Shown: piece by piece, positions 7,059 to 63,609 of the stretch | Layout of the letters: every line of letters starts with the position of its first letter | How positions within the stretch are numbered: the stretch's first letter is position 1 | IMG/VR virus record: IMGVR_UViG_3300034109_001012 | DNA from: a virus | Length of the DNA stretch: 64,000 nt | Strand: one strand, 5' to 3' | Translations under genes and position numbers: made by a program | Notes under the pieces: generated by a model | Databases searched by the model: none | What the model was told of the DNA's origin: nothing | The model's input: the letters and a program-made list of their open reading frames with translations, nothing else

Positions 7059-7332
7059 CCTACTCGATGAAGTGGAAAAAATATCAAGAGGGGTAAGCGA
7101 TCGCCATTATTCTATCTTTAAATTCAGCACTCACTTTAAAGGTGCTTTTGGAACACCCGATAGATTAAGGCTTGAACTGCCACACCTTCCAGCTTTTGAC
7201 ACTTTAGAAAAATTACTAATCTGGATGGTTAGTGAACGGGTAAGTTTTTCGGATATTGAAACCGAGAATATTGAAGGTTTTAAAATTCATAATGGGATCT
7301 ACCATGCGGAGGGAGATTTTATAGGTGACTAG
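7042..7332 (+). CDS. hypothetical protein
   Basis: The ATG in the second repeat copy gives MENLGCLLDEVEKI... The track ORF started at 7000 inside the previous gene. Confidence 0.5.
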   Translation: MENLGCLLDEVEKISRGVSDRHYSIFKFSTHFKGAFGTPDRLRLELPHLPAFDTLEKLLIWMVSERVSFSDIETENIEGFKIHNGIYHAEGDFIGD

Positions 7333-14848: not shown

Positions 14849-15214
14849 TTAAATAGCAGCTACAGTTAAGTTTAGCAAAGTCGAACCATATCCAGGAGAT
14901 GGGGAGTTCCATCCCTCAACATTGTCAGAATCCCAATTATTAATCCCGTCAGAATCCCAGATCAGATTAATAGGAACATCTGAAACTAGACAATCCATTT
15001 TAGATCCTGAGTTTAGAAAAACTTTGGTTTGCAATTGCCACGGATTACCCTGTTCAACCTTCGCGTTAAACAGAAACGGTCTAATGGTTAAATAGCCGTC
15101 CGTTGATAGAAGATTAGAAGCCACACCCCCAATGATCATATAATCCTGAGTCGGATTCAAAAGTGTGGTTAAATTATTTTCAACCCTAACGTTTATTGAT
15201 TCAGCTAACGCCAT
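14849..15214 (-). CDS. hypothetical protein
   Basis: 121-aa ORF, first gene of a three-gene minus-strand block. Confidence 0.45.
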   Translation of the reverse strand: MALAESINVRVENNLTTLLNPTQDYMIIGGVASNLLSTDGYLTIRPFLFNAKVEQGNPWQLQTKVFLNSGSKMDCLVSDVPINLIWDSDGINNWDSDNVEGWNSPSPGYGSTLLNLTVAAI

Positions 15215-59136: not shown

Positions 59137-60066
59137 ATGGTAACTAATATTATTATGTATGCAAATCAAATTATTCATGGCGATTGTTTTGAGGTTTTAA
59201 AGAATATTCCTGATAAGTCGATTGATGCTGTGATAACCGATCCACCCTACGGAATTGGGTTGGCAAAATGGGATACTGTTGTGGATATCCCATTATTTAC
59301 TAAAGAGGTTAAACGGGTTTCTAATGGGTTTTATGCCTTCTTTGGTCAGATGCCAACTATGGTTAATTGGATTAATGAAGCTAATAATGAGAAATTGCAT
59401 TACTGTGAGCATATATCATGGATTAAGAGAATGGAAATGCCGTGTTTTCCTAGGCTAAAAAGGAAGCACGAAAGTATAATTCTTTATTCTAAAGACTCAA
59501 CTATAAAATATTTTAAAAATACAGGAAAATATGAAGATGTAAAAATCCCTGGGTTAATGTTTGATGTCATTACTATTCAGGCTATACAGAGGATGATCAG
59601 TGACCTGAAAACAGGAGTAGTTAGCAGGATTTCGTCTTGCAACTTTCAAGGACAATTTTCGAGTGAGAAAAGAAAACTCGGAAAAAGTCACAACCGATTG
59701 ATTCCAGAGGATGTAGACTTCACTAATGTTTGGTCATTCTTGCCACCCGTTTATCAACCTGGGAGAAGTCAAAAACAATCCTATGTACACCCAACAGAAA
59801 AGCCATTAGAGATAATGAAGCGGTTAGTTGAAATGCTAACACCGGAAGGTGGAACAGTTTTAGATCCGTTTTGTGGTAGTGGTACAACGGCGGTGGCTTG
59901 CAAAGAATTGGGGCGTAATTATATTTGTATTGAGAAAGAGAAAGAATATTTTGATATTGCTTGCGATCGCATCTCCCAACCCAGGGAATATTCAGAAACA
60001 GAATTAGAAATTATGGAGCTAAAGCAACCGGAATTTAAGCAATTAAGTTTGTTTGACGTGGCTTAA
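59137..60066 (+). CDS. beta-class N4/N6 DNA methyltransferase
   Basis: ITDPPYGIG is motif IV. HPTEKPLEIMKRLV. LDPFCGSGTT is motif I. Confidence 0.8.
   Translation: MVTNIIMYANQIIHGDCFEVLKNIPDKSIDAVITDPPYGIGLAKWDTVVDIPLFTKEVKRVSNGFYAFFGQMPTMVNWINEANNEKLHYCEHISWIKRMEMPCFPRLKRKHESIILYSKDSTIKYFKNTGKYEDVKIPGLMFDVITIQAIQRMISDLKTGVVSRISSCNFQGQFSSEKRKLGKSHNRLIPEDVDFTNVWSFLPPVYQPGRSQKQSYVHPTEKPLEIMKRLVEMLTPEGGTVLDPFCGSGTTAVACKELGRNYICIEKEKEYFDIACDRISQPREYSETELEIMELKQPEFKQLSLFDVA
60026..60066 (+). repeat. 41-bp direct repeat, copy 1
   Basis: AACCGGAATTTAAGCAATTAAGTTTGTTTGACGTGGCTTAA forms the 3' end of the methyltransferase gene. Confidence 0.9.
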
Positions 60067-61172: not shown

Positions 61173-61181
61173 TCAAAAAAT

Positions 61182-61206
61182 AACCCTCTAAATATTTAGA
61201 GGGGTT
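61182..61206 (+). terminator. palindromic terminator copy 1
   Basis: CCCTCTAAATATTTAGAGGG is a perfect palindrome. The same element recurs at 61680. Confidence 0.6.
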
Positions 61207-61233
61207 AATCCCATGAGTAAACATTAATAAAAA

Positions 61234-61674
61234 ATGACTACACCAACGGATAGATACGCATCCGCACTAAAAGAACTCTCCTCACTCCTTGGGGGTCAAA
61301 TAGCCTATCACTTTCCTGATTATCAGGCAATATTAGATAACGTGCAGCCACGGGGTACAAGAGCCCTTTTTAGACAGCAAACTCGTTTAATGGCTGTTGT
61401 AGAAGGGGTTGCCATTATAAAGATCGGTAACTCTGCTATAAAAGAACTAGCCTCTACTCATCGCCATTCAAACGCATTGACTGAAGCGTTTAAGTCTTAT
61501 TATGGTGGCGAGGGCATGAGCCTTGTTTTTATTTGTGACGACGACATTATAAAACCACCGCCACCGCCAAGAGACAAGAATGGACAGGCAAGTATTTTTG
61601 ACATCCTGGAAAGTGAGTATTTTAAGAGTTCACCAAAAGGAGGCATTCTTACCAATCCCAAGCCAACTAAATAA
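61234..61674 (+). CDS. hypothetical protein
   Basis: 146-aa ORF with a PPPPP tract. Confidence 0.5.
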   Translation: MTTPTDRYASALKELSSLLGGQIAYHFPDYQAILDNVQPRGTRALFRQQTRLMAVVEGVAIIKIGNSAIKELASTHRHSNALTEAFKSYYGGEGMSLVFICDDDIIKPPPPPRDKNGQASIFDILESEYFKSSPKGGILTNPKPTK

Positions 61675-61679
61675 AAATA

Positions 61680-61701
61680 CCCCTCTAAATATTTAGAGGG
61701 G
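61680..61701. terminator. palindromic terminator copy 2 (bidirectional)
   Basis: CCCCTCTAAATATTTAGAGGGG lies between convergent transcription units. Confidence 0.6.
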
Positions 61702-61739
61702 TTAAACCTAAATAAACACAAATTAAAACTTGCGAAGTT

Positions 61740-61817
61740 TTAACTTAATTTGTTGGCGAGCATAACACCAACAATTCCGCATAGTAAACAAACCAACAGG
61801 GTTAAAAAATAAGTCAT
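61740..61817 (-). CDS. 25-aa hydrophobic peptide (not in ORF track)
   Basis: MTYFLTLLVCLLCGIVGVMLANKLS. Its leader and SD (AAGGTAGAG) are identical to those of the upstream gene 61903..62106. Confidence 0.45.
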   Translation of the reverse strand: MTYFLTLLVCLLCGIVGVMLANKLS

Positions 61818-61856
61818 GTCTCTACCTTTGTGTTGTTGATATCCCTTTTCGGGAAT

Positions 61857-61902
61857 GCGATCGCACGGAGTCGAACCGTGCTAGGAGCTAACCTGCGATC
61901 GC
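61857..61902 (-). ncRNA. tRNA-like minihelix A (acceptor stem + T-arm, no D or anticodon arms)
   Basis: Minus-strand RNA: GCGAUCG-CAGGUUAGCUCCUAG-CACGG-UUCGACU-CCGUG-CGAUCGC, then an unpaired A. It starts directly after the stop codon at 61903-61905. Confidence 0.6.
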
Positions 61903-62106
61903 TCAAACATATTCTAGGATCGCCCCATCGGGGAAATCCGAATACATCTCAGCCTCCTTAGCGAAAGCTAGAAAATCCTTGTGTATAAATACGTCAGTAC
62001 CATTAAAGGTACTCAGGACGTACCCAGCTTCTGCTAACTGGTTACGATAAGCCCCGACCGCCTTTTTGTAGTCGGCGCTAATTTTCAACCCCTTTGCTAG
62101 TGTCAT
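61903..62106 (-). CDS. hypothetical protein
   Basis: 67-aa ORF flanked on both sides by tRNA-like modules. Confidence 0.5.
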   Translation of the reverse strand: MTLAKGLKISADYKKAVGAYRNQLAEAGYVLSTFNGTDVFIHKDFLAFAKEAEMYSDFPDGAILEYV

Positions 62107-62144
62107 GTCTCTACCTTTGTGTTGTTTAAATCCCTTTCGGGAAT

Positions 62145-62186
62145 GCGACCACTGGGAATCGAACCCAGTCAGGGGCCTGCGGTCGC
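62145..62186 (-). ncRNA. tRNA-like minihelix B
   Basis: Minus-strand RNA: GCGACCG-CAGGCCCCUGA-CUGGG-UUCGAUU-CCCAG-UGGUCGC, then an unpaired A and a UCCC-GAAA-GGGA tetraloop hairpin. It lies 4 nt after the stop at 62191-62193. Confidence 0.6.
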
Positions 62187-62190
62187 TGTC

Positions 62191-62994
62191 TTAGTCAACA
62201 AGATCGCACTTTGCTGTCATCTTGTTTCCGCAGGGAAAATCCGCACAAACGGATTGATATAGCGGGTTTTTAGTCCCAAAGGCTTTGGTCACGGTTCCCT
62301 GTCCATAGACAGGGTGATTGATAATGTCCCCGACTTTCAATAAACCCGTCGAGGGTTTATTTAAATCCTCCAGGTATTTTTCAATAACCTTGATTGCTTC
62401 TGTGTAAAAATGCTCCCGTTGGGGAGTGTAGACCTTCTCCACTTTTTCGGTAGGCAAGTCTAAGACGGCCAAATCCGCCACAGTATATTCCGTGACTTCC
62501 CCATAGCCCGTTTCATAGGCGATGGTAGTGGCACTGGGAAACTTGGGTTTTCCCTCAATAACTTCCCCAAATTGGTTCACGGCTTTAGTTGCCGTGTAGG
62601 TGACTAAAACCTCGTATTCATCAGCCACAAAATGGGCTTTGGGGCTAGGGGTTTCACCCCATTGAGAATTGCCTCCCCGCATCCCATCAGGGGATTCTTT
62701 GCGACGGGTGGGGCGGGCGGTTTTTTGGTAACTACCGTGTAGTTTTTCGCAGGAAACGGATTCCTGTTTTTGTTCGTGGGTGACAACCCATTCTAGGGGT
62801 GTCACCTTAACTGAATTTGGTAACGGGGTGACGCTACCAATGGAGTCGCCGTCTTTCCAGACGTTTCCTCTGTTGTCAACGTGACATCCCTTTGTAGGGA
62901 GTTTTAGGGCATCACACCCCAAAACCGCATTCCATTTCCACTCAGGGGTTTTTGGAGCTTTGGCGGTTTTGGCGGTTTTGGTTGCGACTGTCAT
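62191..62994 (-). CDS. hypothetical protein with C-terminal Tudor/SH3-like VGDxIxHxxYGxGTV motif
   Basis: 267 aa. VGDIINHPVYGQGTVTKAF resembles the small C-terminal domain seen in UvrD/PcrA-type proteins. N-terminal KTAKTAKAPKTP repeat. Confidence 0.45.
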   Translation of the reverse strand: MTVATKTAKTAKAPKTPEWKWNAVLGCDALKLPTKGCHVDNRGNVWKDGDSIGSVTPLPNSVKVTPLEWVVTHEQKQESVSCEKLHGSYQKTARPTRRKESPDGMRGGNSQWGETPSPKAHFVADEYEVLVTYTATKAVNQFGEVIEGKPKFPSATTIAYETGYGEVTEYTVADLAVLDLPTEKVEKVYTPQREHFYTEAIKVIEKYLEDLNKPSTGLLKVGDIINHPVYGQGTVTKAFGTKNPLYQSVCADFPCGNKMTAKCDLVD

Positions 62995-63026
62995 GGCGTT
63001 ATGTCCTCTGTGCGTTTACAAATTCT

Positions 63027-63056
63027 ATAATATACGCATACTTTAGAAATTGTCAA
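63027..63056 (-). promoter_or_regulatory. promoter P4 (same family leader as P1)
   Basis: The reverse complement reads TTGACA-16 to 18 nt-TATATTAT. The leader AAACGCACAGAGGACATAACGCC-ATG is nearly identical to the P1 leader AAACACGCAGAGGACATAACACC-ATG. Confidence 0.6.
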
Positions 63057-63262
63057 CCTTTTTTTAAAAAAATTTTATAAAAGGCTTGTAAGTCTTGTGG
63101 GGCAATCGCTCCACGGGATAGGCGTTCAACGAACTCACTCCTGGACACTCCCAAGAGCGCAGCTAATTTATCAAGCCGTTGCCACGCCGTGTCGGTCAAA
63201 CTCAGATTGTGAGGCTTTTTCTTTTCCCCATAGTCGGGGACTCTGTTTATATAGTCGCGCAT
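63053..63262 (-). CDS. ribbon-helix-helix (CopG/MetJ-type) DNA-binding protein
   Basis: HNLSLTDTAWQRLDKLAALLGVSRSEFVERLSRG fits the beta-strand plus two helices pattern of RHH proteins. Confidence 0.65.
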   Translation of the reverse strand: MRDYINRVPDYGEKKKPHNLSLTDTAWQRLDKLAALLGVSRSEFVERLSRGAIAPQDLQAFYKIFLKKG

Positions 63263-63349
63263 TGTGCCATCTCCTGCTGTATTTATATATTTCTATACTA
63301 TACGCATTGGCAAATTAAATCCATTATCAGGAGCAATTGGCAACAGGTA

Positions 63350-63444: not shown

Positions 63445-63609
63445 ATGGAACCAACACAGCTAACAATGGAGCAAGAATTTAAACTTGCGACAATTAAACG
63501 TAATGTGGATATATTGACATTGGAGGAAGCTAGAGAATATATAATTGAATTAATAAGGCAAGGTATGATTAAAGATGATTTGATTAAAAATTGGATGAGG
63601 ATGAAATGA
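63445..63609 (+). CDS. nblA: NblA-like phycobilisome degradation protein (not in ORF track)
   Basis: 54 aa: MEPTQLTMEQEFKLATIKRNVDILTLEEAREYIIELIRQGMIKDDLIKNWMRMK. It follows the NblA pattern (LSLEQQF...MSHDQAKDFLVKLYEQMVV in Anabaena NblA, recalled from memory). Its stop overlaps the tmk ATG. Confidence 0.6.
   Translation: MEPTQLTMEQEFKLATIKRNVDILTLEEAREYIIELIRQGMIKDDLIKNWMRMK

Follow-up and report, generated by a model that had tools for sequence, protein, structure and literature searches.

Two copies of a module of ~85 nucleotides (nt) punctuate a small operon in the 64-kb stretch of viral DNA analysed here, IMG/VR virus record IMGVR_UViG_3300034109_001012 (the window, meaning this whole stretch; coordinates given without a contig label are positions in it). 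The operon lies on the minus strand, in a region that is 90% identical to Planktothrix phage PaV-LD from ORF023R to ORF026R. According to the list of open reading frames (ORFs) and the comparison with PaV-LD, the first cistron encodes a protein of 267 amino acids (aa) and is the homologue of ORF024R (62191-62994), and the second encodes one of 67 aa and is the homologue of ORF025R (61903-62106); neither protein has a significant Pfam or PHROG family. The third cistron is a predicted hydrophobic ORF of 25 aa, MTYFLTLLVCLLCGIVGVMLANKLS (61740-61817). The transcription unit would run from a sigma-70-like promoter through the 267-aa gene, element B, the 67-aa gene, element A and the 25-aa ORF to a terminator, and is probably read as one RNA.

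Module B (62186-62104, minus strand) starts 4 nt past the TAA of the 267-aa ORF, and module A (61902-61815, minus strand) directly past the TGA of the 67-aa ORF. Each opens with a minihelix that has the shape of the top half of a tRNA. Minihelix B is 42 nt long (62145-62186) and its minimum free energy fold is the minihelix itself: the acceptor 5' strand GCGACCG (62186-62180) is followed by an 11-nt linker, CAGGCCCCTGA, then by a T arm with the stem CTGGG/CCCAG and the loop TTCGATT (62163-62157), and finally by the acceptor 3' strand TGGTCGC (62151-62145). Minihelix A is 46 nt long (61857-61902) and is built from the acceptor strands GCGATCG (61902-61896) and CGATCGC (61863-61857), a 15-nt linker, CAGGTTAGCTCCTAG, and the T arm CACGG-TTCGACT-CCGTG. 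Both linkers start with CAGG and end in a stretch that contains CCU. Behind the acceptor stands an unpaired, discriminator-like A (62144 in B, 61856 in A) and then a U (62143 and 61855), with the predicted RNase Z cut falling between the two. A 4-bp hairpin comes next, UCCC-GAAA-GGGA with a GNRA loop in B (62131-62142) and the variant UCCC-GAAAA-GGGA with a 5-nt loop in A (61842-61854). It is followed by an A-rich leader, which in B (62107-62130) carries the ribosome-binding site AAAGG for the 67-aa gene (ATG at 62106) and in A (61818-61841) likewise holds a ribosome-binding site; the final 20 nt of the two leaders are the same. These 20 nt and the following ATGAC make up a shared stretch of 25 nt, AACAACACAAAGGTAGAGACATGAC, with two exact matches and none expected. 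Every statement that the original prediction had made about the sequence of these modules, from stems, loops and linkers to the hairpin, the identical leader and the adjacency to stop codons, was confirmed.

The 3' strands of T stem and acceptor are contiguous in both copies, giving a stack of 12 bp. A and B differ at 4 of the 12 stem pairs and all four are still paired, three through double compensatory changes (U-A/C-G, A-U/U-A and C-G/G-C) and one through a change from G-C to G·U, which bears out the compensatory changes claimed at the outset. The pair at the junction of the two stems can be drawn in two registers. When the first base of the acceptor 3' strand is paired with G7 (register 7+5), the 19 distinct minihelix sequences of the family described below show G·U in 9, G-C in 8 and mismatches in 2; when it is paired with the last base of the linker (register 6+6) they show G-C in 10 and A-U in 9 with zero exceptions. 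In either register the stack is 12 bp long, the same distance over which RNase P gauges a tRNA (PMC4919913). A mini-hairpin of 3 bp, AGG/CCU, is conserved in the linker, which is also a quasi-repeat of the T arm (GGTTAGCTCC versus GGTTCGACTCC). In copy A the 15-nt linker and the T arm CACGGTTCGACTCCGTG form a quasi-direct repeat (61864-61895, minus strand). Judging by these likenesses, the minihelix may stem from a T arm that was duplicated in tandem rather than from a tRNA that lost its D and anticodon arms.

The leader behind the hairpin (e.g., UUUAAACAACGCACAGAGGAAACGCC-AUG) resembles the primary 5' untranslated region (UTR) behind the promoter (AAACGCACAGAGGACAUAACGCC-AUG), so that each module recreates a 5' UTR for the next gene. 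Predicted folds leave this leader open, with no conserved pairing of element, hairpin or leader with the ribosome-binding site. The sequence of copy A is also touched by the HIP1 octamer GCGATCGC, of which the window holds 22 copies against 0.19 expected in shuffles (e.g., at 7097, 13725, 61857 and 61895): each acceptor strand of copy A lies inside one (61857-61864 and 61895-61902). Copy B and many homologues are non-HIP1 (GCGACCGC/GTGGTCGC) and still pair, hence HIP1 colours the sequence of some copies and leaves the structure unexplained.

The two sites are more than a product of chance. A descriptor requiring a fully paired 7-bp stem, a linker of 3-25 nt, a 5-bp stem round a TTCRANN loop and contiguous 3' strands, and otherwise independent of sequence, picked out sites A and B and nothing else when both strands of the 64 kb were scanned, for an expectation of 0.06 from shuffled sequence. 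The covariance model built here, R1, scored A at 84.7 and B at 78.8 bits, the next best site in the window reaching 15 bits, and model and pattern scans revealed no further copies in the window, nor in PaV-LD beyond a single cluster. The T arms have the hallmarks of canonical tRNA, namely a 5-bp stem, the G53-C61 closing pair, a 7-nt UUCRANY loop, contiguous 3' strands and an unpaired discriminator. Nevertheless the elements had been called too short for tRNAs, and we agree. ARAGORN called 0 tRNA genes in the window, PaV-LD and 40+ related loci apart from one spurious call, and the Rfam tRNA model RF00005 gave no match even at E <= 10. That one call, a 97-nt 'tRNA-Pro(tgg)' at L141:1418-1514 (plus strand), lies antisense within the 267-aa coding region and was judged a false positive. 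A canonical tRNA was rejected, as merely 11-15 nt lie between acceptor and T stems and the D and anticodon arms are absent.

Other known RNA classes fared no better. No Rfam family reached its gathering score anywhere in the window, and the only Rfam models touching both copies on the sense strand were tRNA-like: mascRNA-menRNA (RF01684) scored 23.8 and 22.6 bits (E = 0.03-0.07), well under the gathering score of 42.5. Matches below threshold to small RNA models (ncr1575, JA04, PyrR) reflect the operon terminator and were discarded, as was a match to the Plastid-ycf2 5'UTR model on the antisense of copy B (62143-62186, plus strand; 27.2 bits versus a threshold of 65.7), which presumably arises from an antisense likeness to the T arm and acceptor. 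ARAGORN called no tmRNA, there was no tmRNA or YrlA match in Rfam at E <= 10, and the PaV-LD annotation has no Ro60-like gene. A promoter scan found no -35/-10 site within 61815-62190 on either strand; a T4-type PeSL or other promoter-bearing cassette was rejected, the repeat being without promoter consensus. An intrinsic terminator was rejected too, with no terminator-like site at either element and the operon terminator standing separately (61702-61679).

We extended the analysis to relatives by means of R1 and degenerate pattern scans of IMG/VR and metagenome contigs. A scan with the 14-mer TCGCATTCCCGAAA gave mostly chance matches among those listed, and longer degenerate patterns were used instead. 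The contigs carrying the 67-aa gene are mostly metagenome assemblies, in which assembly breaks at repeats are indistinguishable from RNA ends; the ends of these contigs were kept out of the evidence. Altogether ~60 instances were found, comprising 19 distinct minihelix sequences and all in PaV-LD-like phage contigs. Members score 52-92 bits, and one partial and one divergent copy 28-32 bits; the best score in 866 kb of unrelated control DNA was 26.5 bits, at loci with real tRNA genes and then TTCCCGAA. Two pattern scans of one genome for each of 185,579 bacterial and archaeal species returned no copy, with one presumed chance match in a gammaproteobacterial metagenome-assembled genome, and on these scans a host-genome repeat or miniature inverted-repeat transposable element was rejected. 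In these scans the pattern of linker plus T arm was unmatched, the host tRNA genes themselves not being compared. PaV-LD was the sole match among 50,697 phage records, and the 1.65-kb region had no plasmid match. The modules are a small family specific to PaV-LD-like Planktothrix cyanophages.

Within this family a third type of T stem, UCCGG/CCGGG with the loop UUCAAUU, occurs besides the two types in the window. All full copies read GG-TTCGAYT-CC or GG-TTCAATT-CC, and the discriminator A that follows is kept in every copy save one lineage, which has C; then comes U, and the hairpin starts 1-2 nt past the discriminator. Acceptor pair 3 is seen as G-C, A-U and G·U and pair 5 as U-A, C-G and U·G. 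Position -1 is an A in nearly all copies, despite the different upstream genes. The divergent member, at L148:2281-2338, has the third T-stem type and an unrelated hairpin, AGCAAGG...CCUUGCU, in the same place after the discriminator and UU.

The original prediction had staked itself on finding conservation and covariation in related genomes, and both were found. Across the 19 distinct sequences 97.2% of stem cells are paired in register 7+5 and 97.9% in register 6+6, with 4 and 5 pairs, respectively, showing double compensatory changes. The covariation score was 0.285 (7+5) or 0.327 (6+6) versus 0.149 and 0.155 in column shuffles, a value reached by 0 of 500; as a control, sliding the partners by 1-3 columns left only 29-48% paired, and RNAalifold independently gave the same architecture. 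The non-Watson-Crick pairs carry a strand signature. Read on the transcript strand they are 20 G·U pairs and 7 mismatches, whereas the antisense would have 4 G·U pairs and 23 mismatches. A DNA cruciform or neutral palindrome would lack this asymmetry, which therefore points to selection at the RNA level. Conservation was taken as mean pairwise identity over 12 distinct sequences aligned at the orthologous B position. It amounted to 0.94 for the minihelix, with one 4-nt indel and four variable columns, and to 1.00 for the hairpin, against 0.78 and 0.73 for the third codon positions of the two flanking genes and 0.71 for the leader. Gene conversion between copies cannot explain this conservation, since A and B in one genome are merely 76% alike over the 45 nt that span the T arm and its flanks. 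The tRNA-top-half structure is selected on the transcript strand.

Full copies always stand in gene orientation between cistrons, mostly 0-13 nt past a stop codon and with 19-39 nt between them and the following ATG, and the genes around them belong to at least six families upstream and at least eight downstream. Nearly all copies lie in a variable operon headed by RHH and 267-aa genes, beside nblA. As an alternative the modules had been proposed as recombination targets, and descriptively this is so: cassette insertions, deletions and A/B chimeras break in or at the module. In PaV-LD, ORF026R is inserted between two 18-bp direct repeats, GCGATCGCATTCCCGAAA, and the 25-aa ORF is missing there. 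The copy in L103 breaks off inside the linker/T arm, after CCTAGCA, and is joined to a different gene. Four different deletions begin at or shortly past the discriminator (A73+0, +2, +8 and +9), with hairpin, leader and last cistron gone and the minihelix kept; one class of deletion is also without the terminator, and in L148b, L153 and L171 the 3' end of the convergent gene abuts the minihelix in a direct fusion. In L128 the B position is taken by a minihelix of type A, and L124a, L142 and L158a carry A/B chimeras. L167 has three modules in one operon, including two tandem diverged paralogues of the 67-aa gene with a module and a 37-53-nt spacer between them (L167:1088-1632). The scatter of these breakpoints fits homologous or illegitimate recombination at repeats, not a site-specific process. 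The module marks breakpoints of gene-cassette exchange. An integron attC site was considered and rejected: of the expected pair of inverse core and core (RYYYAAC ... GTTRRRY), the element's GTT-containing heptamers, GTTAGCT and GTTCGAC, both misfit GTTRRRY, and in place of one defined crossover the breakpoints occupy at least five different positions.

What purpose would a tRNA-like structure serve between phage genes? Here the original prediction stands in its structural part, a covarying acceptor/T-arm minihelix that is no tRNA; its further claim, that enzymes of tRNA maturation (RNase P, RNase Z or the CCA-adding enzyme) process the RNA and uncouple the cistrons, is suggested by resemblance to known substrates. 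At roughly even chances we favour the explanation that the modules act like t-elements, i.e., as intercistronic signals that are cut by host RNase P and RNase Z, after which the downstream mRNA would start with the hairpin. The operon would be transcribed as a single RNA, from promoter through terminator, and each element would fold into the 12-bp acceptor/T-arm stack with its canonical T-loop, the part of a tRNA that is recognised by RNase P, RNase Z and the CCA-adding enzyme. Host RNase P would cut 5' of G+1, 0-4 nt past the upstream stop codon, and host RNase Z after discriminator A73. The predicted products are an upstream mRNA ending just past its stop codon, a minihelix RNA of 43-47 nt (the 42-46 nt plus the discriminator), and a downstream mRNA whose 5' end is a monophosphorylated single U followed by the GNRA-capped hairpin. 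This hairpin would shield the downstream mRNA from 5'-end-dependent RNases, with the unstructured leader and its ribosome-binding site coming next, and the cistrons would thereby gain independent stability and translation. Since the same ~85-nt module recurs, it would serve also as a patch of homology through which cassettes are exchanged, duplicated and deleted, recombination then being a by-product. We infer transcription as one unit, every cleavage step and the protection by the hairpin from the sequence and its likeness to known systems.

Several lines of background make such processing plausible. Cyanobacterial tRNA genes mostly have no encoded CCA and their products are matured by RNase Z, which favours a U after the discriminator. 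A 5' stem-loop protects against 5'-end-dependent decay, as in E. coli ompA. Acceptor/T-arm hairpins are efficient model substrates of RNase P, an enzyme that also cuts operon mRNAs and, among phage RNAs, M3 and C4 (PMC11143913). Plant t-elements set mRNA ends via RNase P and RNase Z and were found with the motif GGTTCRANYCC (PMC1920247). This motif is present in all three T-stem types of the phage family, along with a covarying acceptor stem, an intercistronic position and gene orientation. The deletions described above also fit, in that the hairpin is lost and the minihelix kept where the downstream cistron is lost. In its fullest form, the proposal would be that a phage punctuates its RNA in the manner of tRNAs and yet has none: host RNase P and RNase Z would be hijacked by portable minihelices to turn an early operon into monocistronic mRNAs with protective 5' hairpins, the excised, CCA-competent minihelices possibly acting as decoys as well. 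We advance this wider version tentatively and rate it somewhat short of even chances.

A number of observations weigh against cleavage by the two enzymes. One concerns copy A of PaV-LD, whose T hairpin is exactly inverted, CACGG-AGTCGAA-CCGTG (L001:5404-5450; record 15096-15142). The inversion destroys the T-loop, so PaV-LD can do without tRNA mimicry by copy A at least. It refolds to one long hairpin (-33.9 kcal/mol, z = -4.5) in which the inverted loop pairs with the linker; the stem of the T hairpin is unchanged, and the 3' hairpin is truncated also. The event looks like a hairpin flip or template switch. Copy B of PaV-LD has an A1xC72 mismatch, and the commonest variant of the family (L024 type) has U7xC66 in the 7+5 register. 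The tight adjacency to stop codons is not universal, as copies in L167 stand 37 and 53 nt past theirs. The statistical case has its own limits. The family is narrow and young, with a mean column identity of 87-89%, and most of the covariation separates two T-arm types that are possibly co-inherited blocks. Related sequences can beat column shuffles without any structure, a caveat of the covariation tool, and the count-based measure is only moderately unusual (4 pairs, where the shuffles average 2.6 and 39 of 500 attain that count). Finally, an RNase P cut would leave the upstream mRNA with no obvious 3' protection, and bacterial RNase P is often helped by a 3' RCCA, a motif that the elements lack. 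The cyanobacterial enzyme is not known to require it.

The question of 3' protection leads to a reading that differs from cleavage by both enzymes solely in which cuts occur. If RNase Z alone were to cut, the minihelix would stay on the upstream mRNA as a 3'-terminal tRNA-like cap, a stable GC-rich structure that would block 3' exonucleases and set the 3' end; we liken this to the 3' ends of plant RNA viruses. Such a cap is compatible with all data. It would protect an upstream mRNA that is otherwise exposed after an RNase P cut, and it suits both the position of the element, mostly 0-13 nt past the stop codon, and the terminal copies that keep a minihelix without a terminator and are fused to a convergent gene. 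On the other hand, RNase P has a textbook substrate in any free acceptor/T-arm minihelix whose position -1 is an unpaired A, nothing visible would block the 5' cut, and three terminal copies have stem mismatches (L153A, L148b and L156A), which would be odd if the structure matters there. We regard this variant as unlikely.

A second possibility concerns the fate of the released minihelix, and would add to processing rather than replace it. The minihelix, possibly CCA-tailed, would itself be a functional trans-acting mimic of tRNA, a decoy for host defence nucleases or toxins that target tRNA or a competitor for the enzymes that process or modify tRNA, and cleavage of the mRNA would then merely be its route of biogenesis, as for mascRNA. 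The data are compatible with this throughout: minihelix and T-loop are strictly conserved, the minihelix is retained after loss of the downstream cistron and hairpin, an operon has 2-3 copies behind a promoter of early type, both copies weakly match the mascRNA model, and HicAB and PIN-like toxin genes nearby in PaV-LD suggest conflict systems directed at tRNA or other RNA in the region. A mimic without an anticodon arm, however, cannot imitate the usual target site of anticodon nucleases. The acceptors vary (G1-C72, A1xC72, G3-C70, G3·U70 and A3-U70), so that there is no single aminoacylation identity, and the two copies of PaV-LD are the one with the inverted T-loop and the one with A1xC72. 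A dedicated trans-acting role strikes us as improbable, to about the same degree as the cap.

No more probable than these two is the reading in which the modules are only recombination linkers or cassette boundaries at the DNA level, akin to the PeSLs and boundary sequences of other phages, their tRNA-like shape being a relic of a tRNA-derived ancestor with no function as RNA. The insertion of ORF026R between direct repeats, the break in L103, the deletions starting at A73+0 to +9, the A-type copy in L128, the three chimeras and the tandem 67-aa genes of L167 are all what such a linker would produce. Yet a patch of homology needs no secondary structure, and here double changes keep the stems paired, G·U pairs number 20 on the transcript strand versus 4 on the antisense, and the T-loop is invariant across three T stems. 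Moreover the minihelix exceeds synonymous sites in conservation and the adjacent leader, which belongs to the same repeat, does not. The breakpoints are scattered, with no single crossover point. We take it rather that recombination follows from the repetition, and it is compatible with cleavage by RNase P and RNase Z.

Less probable again is a structured cis-regulatory site that binds a protein or the ribosome, such as a translational operator or coupling device, with no cleavage and with a likeness to tRNA that is coincidental or exploited for binding. A distance to the next cistron's start that is always 19-39 nt, and thus fairly constant, would suit an operator, as would the small RHH gene at the head of the unit. 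RHH proteins bind DNA, though, and the downstream genes are mutually unrelated, there is no conserved pairing with the ribosome-binding site, and the minihelix persists where no downstream cistron is left. This we consider a poor explanation of the data.

Decayed tRNA pseudogenes or attachment-site remnants of integrase events, evolving without selection, are very improbable and by now largely refuted: although PaV-LD-like phages have a tyrosine integrase and an attP-like tRNA-Pro 3' half ~4.5 kb away, and integration commonly leaves fragments of tRNA genes behind (PMC9897764), the elements possess both acceptor strands where att remnants carry one tRNA end, differ in sequence from the attP-like fragment (on which two grounds an attP or tRNA gene fragment was rejected), show the identical internal 'deletion' of D and anticodon arms in every copy, combine conservation above synonymous sites with compensatory pairs, and have no full-length tRNA at their position in any relative. 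The tRNA-Pro-like 3' half (…GGGGTCGCAGGTTCAAATCCTGTCGCTCCGA) deserves a comment of its own. Located beyond the window, it closely precedes ORF018R, the gene of the tyrosine integrase (L161:10243-10290 in PaV-LD), and recurs at L024 ~11594, L079 ~5175 and L110 ~6378. It is a typical attP core, which implies integration into a host tRNA gene. PaV-LD has been treated as a lytic phage, and against that such integration would be noteworthy.

The genes and signals around the modules complete the picture of the operon. The putative promoter (63027-63056, minus strand), TTGACA-N16/18-TATATT/TATTAT, matches the consensus at 11/12 positions and stands before the 267-aa gene, with a transcribed leader, AAACGCACAGAGGACATAACGCC-ATG, like the leaders behind the elements. 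Just upstream of the 267-aa gene is a gene for a 69-aa RHH (CopG-like) protein (63053-63262, minus strand; RHH_1, E = 2e-4 in Pfam), which by repeat comparison has a similar promoter/operator of its own and is the probable regulator of the unit. A 17-nt repeat, TTCTATAATATACGCAT / TTCTATACTATACGCAT on the plus strand (63023-63039 and 63291-63307), overlaps the -10 regions of the 267-aa and RHH genes and is a candidate operator for the RHH protein. At the other end, a terminator scan placed an intrinsic-terminator-like hairpin with a U tract at 61679-61702 (minus strand). A palindromic terminator hairpin (CCCTCTAAATATTTAGAGGGG) is present twice, at 61176-61211 and 61673-61708, with 94% identity over 36 nt; the two copies bracket a convergent 146-aa gene and constitute a second reused regulatory module of the region. 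The 25-aa ORF has the same leader as the 67-aa gene. It occurs in several relatives and is cleanly missing from PaV-LD, where the junction reads CAACACAAA|TTAAAAC and fits a deletion between short CAACA(C)AAA repeats. A 54-aa homologue of NblA, the phycobilisome degradation protein, adjoins the operon (63445-63609, plus strand; cf. PaV-LD ORF022L), and the gene called at the corresponding position in the related contigs L163 and L164 carries Pfam NblA. An N6/N4 DNA methyltransferase (59137-60066, plus strand; Pfam N6_N4_Mtase, E = 1e-37) is encoded ~1.7 kb off the operon and may be relevant to the HIP1/GATC-rich sequence context. The PaV-LD annotation lists no RNA genes, tRNAs or tRNA-processing enzymes.

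The original prediction knew of no described phage system of this kind, and neither Rfam nor the literature searched yielded an account of elements like these from phages or from operons of bacteria. That tRNA-like structures can be signals for RNase P and RNase Z is already known, from analogues that are organellar, archaeal and eukaryotic; a module of minihelix plus 5' hairpin and leader that is mobile within an operon appears to be new. To our knowledge, punctuation by tRNA-like structures other than tRNAs has so far been seen in organelles, an archaeal rRNA operon and vertebrate long noncoding RNAs (lncRNAs). Were the proposed cleavage to prove true, this would be the first case we are aware of in which a phage or bacterial element punctuates an mRNA operon with dedicated tRNA-like minihelices, and the first t-element system in the bacterial and phage world. 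It would mean that host RNase P and RNase Z serve the maturation of phage mRNA in cyanobacteria, and that an RNA-processing signal is tied to cassette exchange in the accessory region of bloom-associated Planktothrix phages. In practical terms it would offer a compact, portable natural part of ~60 nt, made up of minihelix and 5' hairpin, with which polycistronic RNAs could be split, nature's equivalent of the arrays that have been engineered with tRNA spacers. The prediction is a sharp one, of cut sites at single-nucleotide resolution, and stranded metatranscriptomes of total RNA from Sandusky Bay already exist (PRJNA946791, PRJNA941812 and PRJNA945377; PMC10343443).

Among known systems, integron attC sites share with the phage modules a structured form, a place right after cassette stop codons and at cassette boundaries, and conservation of structure above sequence. 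They differ in that the modules lack R''/R' core sites (GTTRRRY) and show scattered breakpoints, selection on the transcript strand and a tRNA T-loop, and in that the nearby integrase has its own attP of tRNA type. The PeSL cassettes of T4-type phages consist of early promoters and terminator-like stem-loops and act in transcription. Like the 'boundary sequences' of lambdoid phages and mycobacteriophages they are short conserved intergenic modules between accessory genes and sites of shuffling; the present module, in contrast, is without promoter or terminator consensus and is tRNA-shaped.

Closer parallels are found where tRNA shapes direct processing. In the tRNA punctuation of animal mitochondrial DNA, and with tRNA genes embedded in bacterial or phage operons, tRNA shapes between cistrons are the cleavage signals, as proposed here; those are real decoding tRNAs, whereas the phage has non-decoding minihelices of 42-46 nt and no tRNA genes. 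The mascRNA and menRNA of MALAT1 and NEAT1 (RF01684) fold like a tRNA, lack a functional anticodon and form the end of a longer transcript, and mascRNA matures through the action of RNase P, RNase Z and the CCA-adding enzyme. They belong to vertebrate nuclear lncRNAs, are ~56-61 nt long with D-like and anticodon-like stems, and have no evolutionary relation to the phage elements. In haloarchaea a tRNA-like element upstream of 5S rRNA is cut by tRNase Z, and crRNAs flanked by t-elements have been engineered. Both are mentioned in PMC6546412. The haloarchaeal element is a prokaryotic tRNA-like element serving purely as an RNase Z/RNase P signal, in this respect like the phage modules, from which it differs in being archaeal, in its rRNA context and in its single locus. 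For RNase P, minihelix model substrates demonstrate that an acceptor stem plus T stem-loop suffices for correct cleavage, and the natural substrates phi80 M3, the C4 antisense RNA of P1/P7 and the mRNAs of his and other operons that phage RNAs and polycistronic mRNAs are cut (PMC11143913); these natural substrates are single cases, not canonical T-loop minihelices, and never a repeated intercistronic module.

The plant mitochondrial t-elements (Forner et al. 2007, PMC1920247) come nearest. They too are non-tRNA elements with a GGTTCRANYCC T arm and an acceptor-like stem, located within mRNA precursors beside coding regions, and their borders are proposed as mRNA ends with the release of a small tRNA-like RNA. 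The plant elements are organellar and served by a protein-only RNase P, whereas in the phage a bacterial RNA-based RNase P is predicted to act, and their cleavage has been shown, where that of the phage modules is predicted. The phage modules differ in turn as a sequence-related mobile family within one operon, in which the tRNA-like element is coupled to a conserved hairpin and leader that look made to begin the next mRNA.

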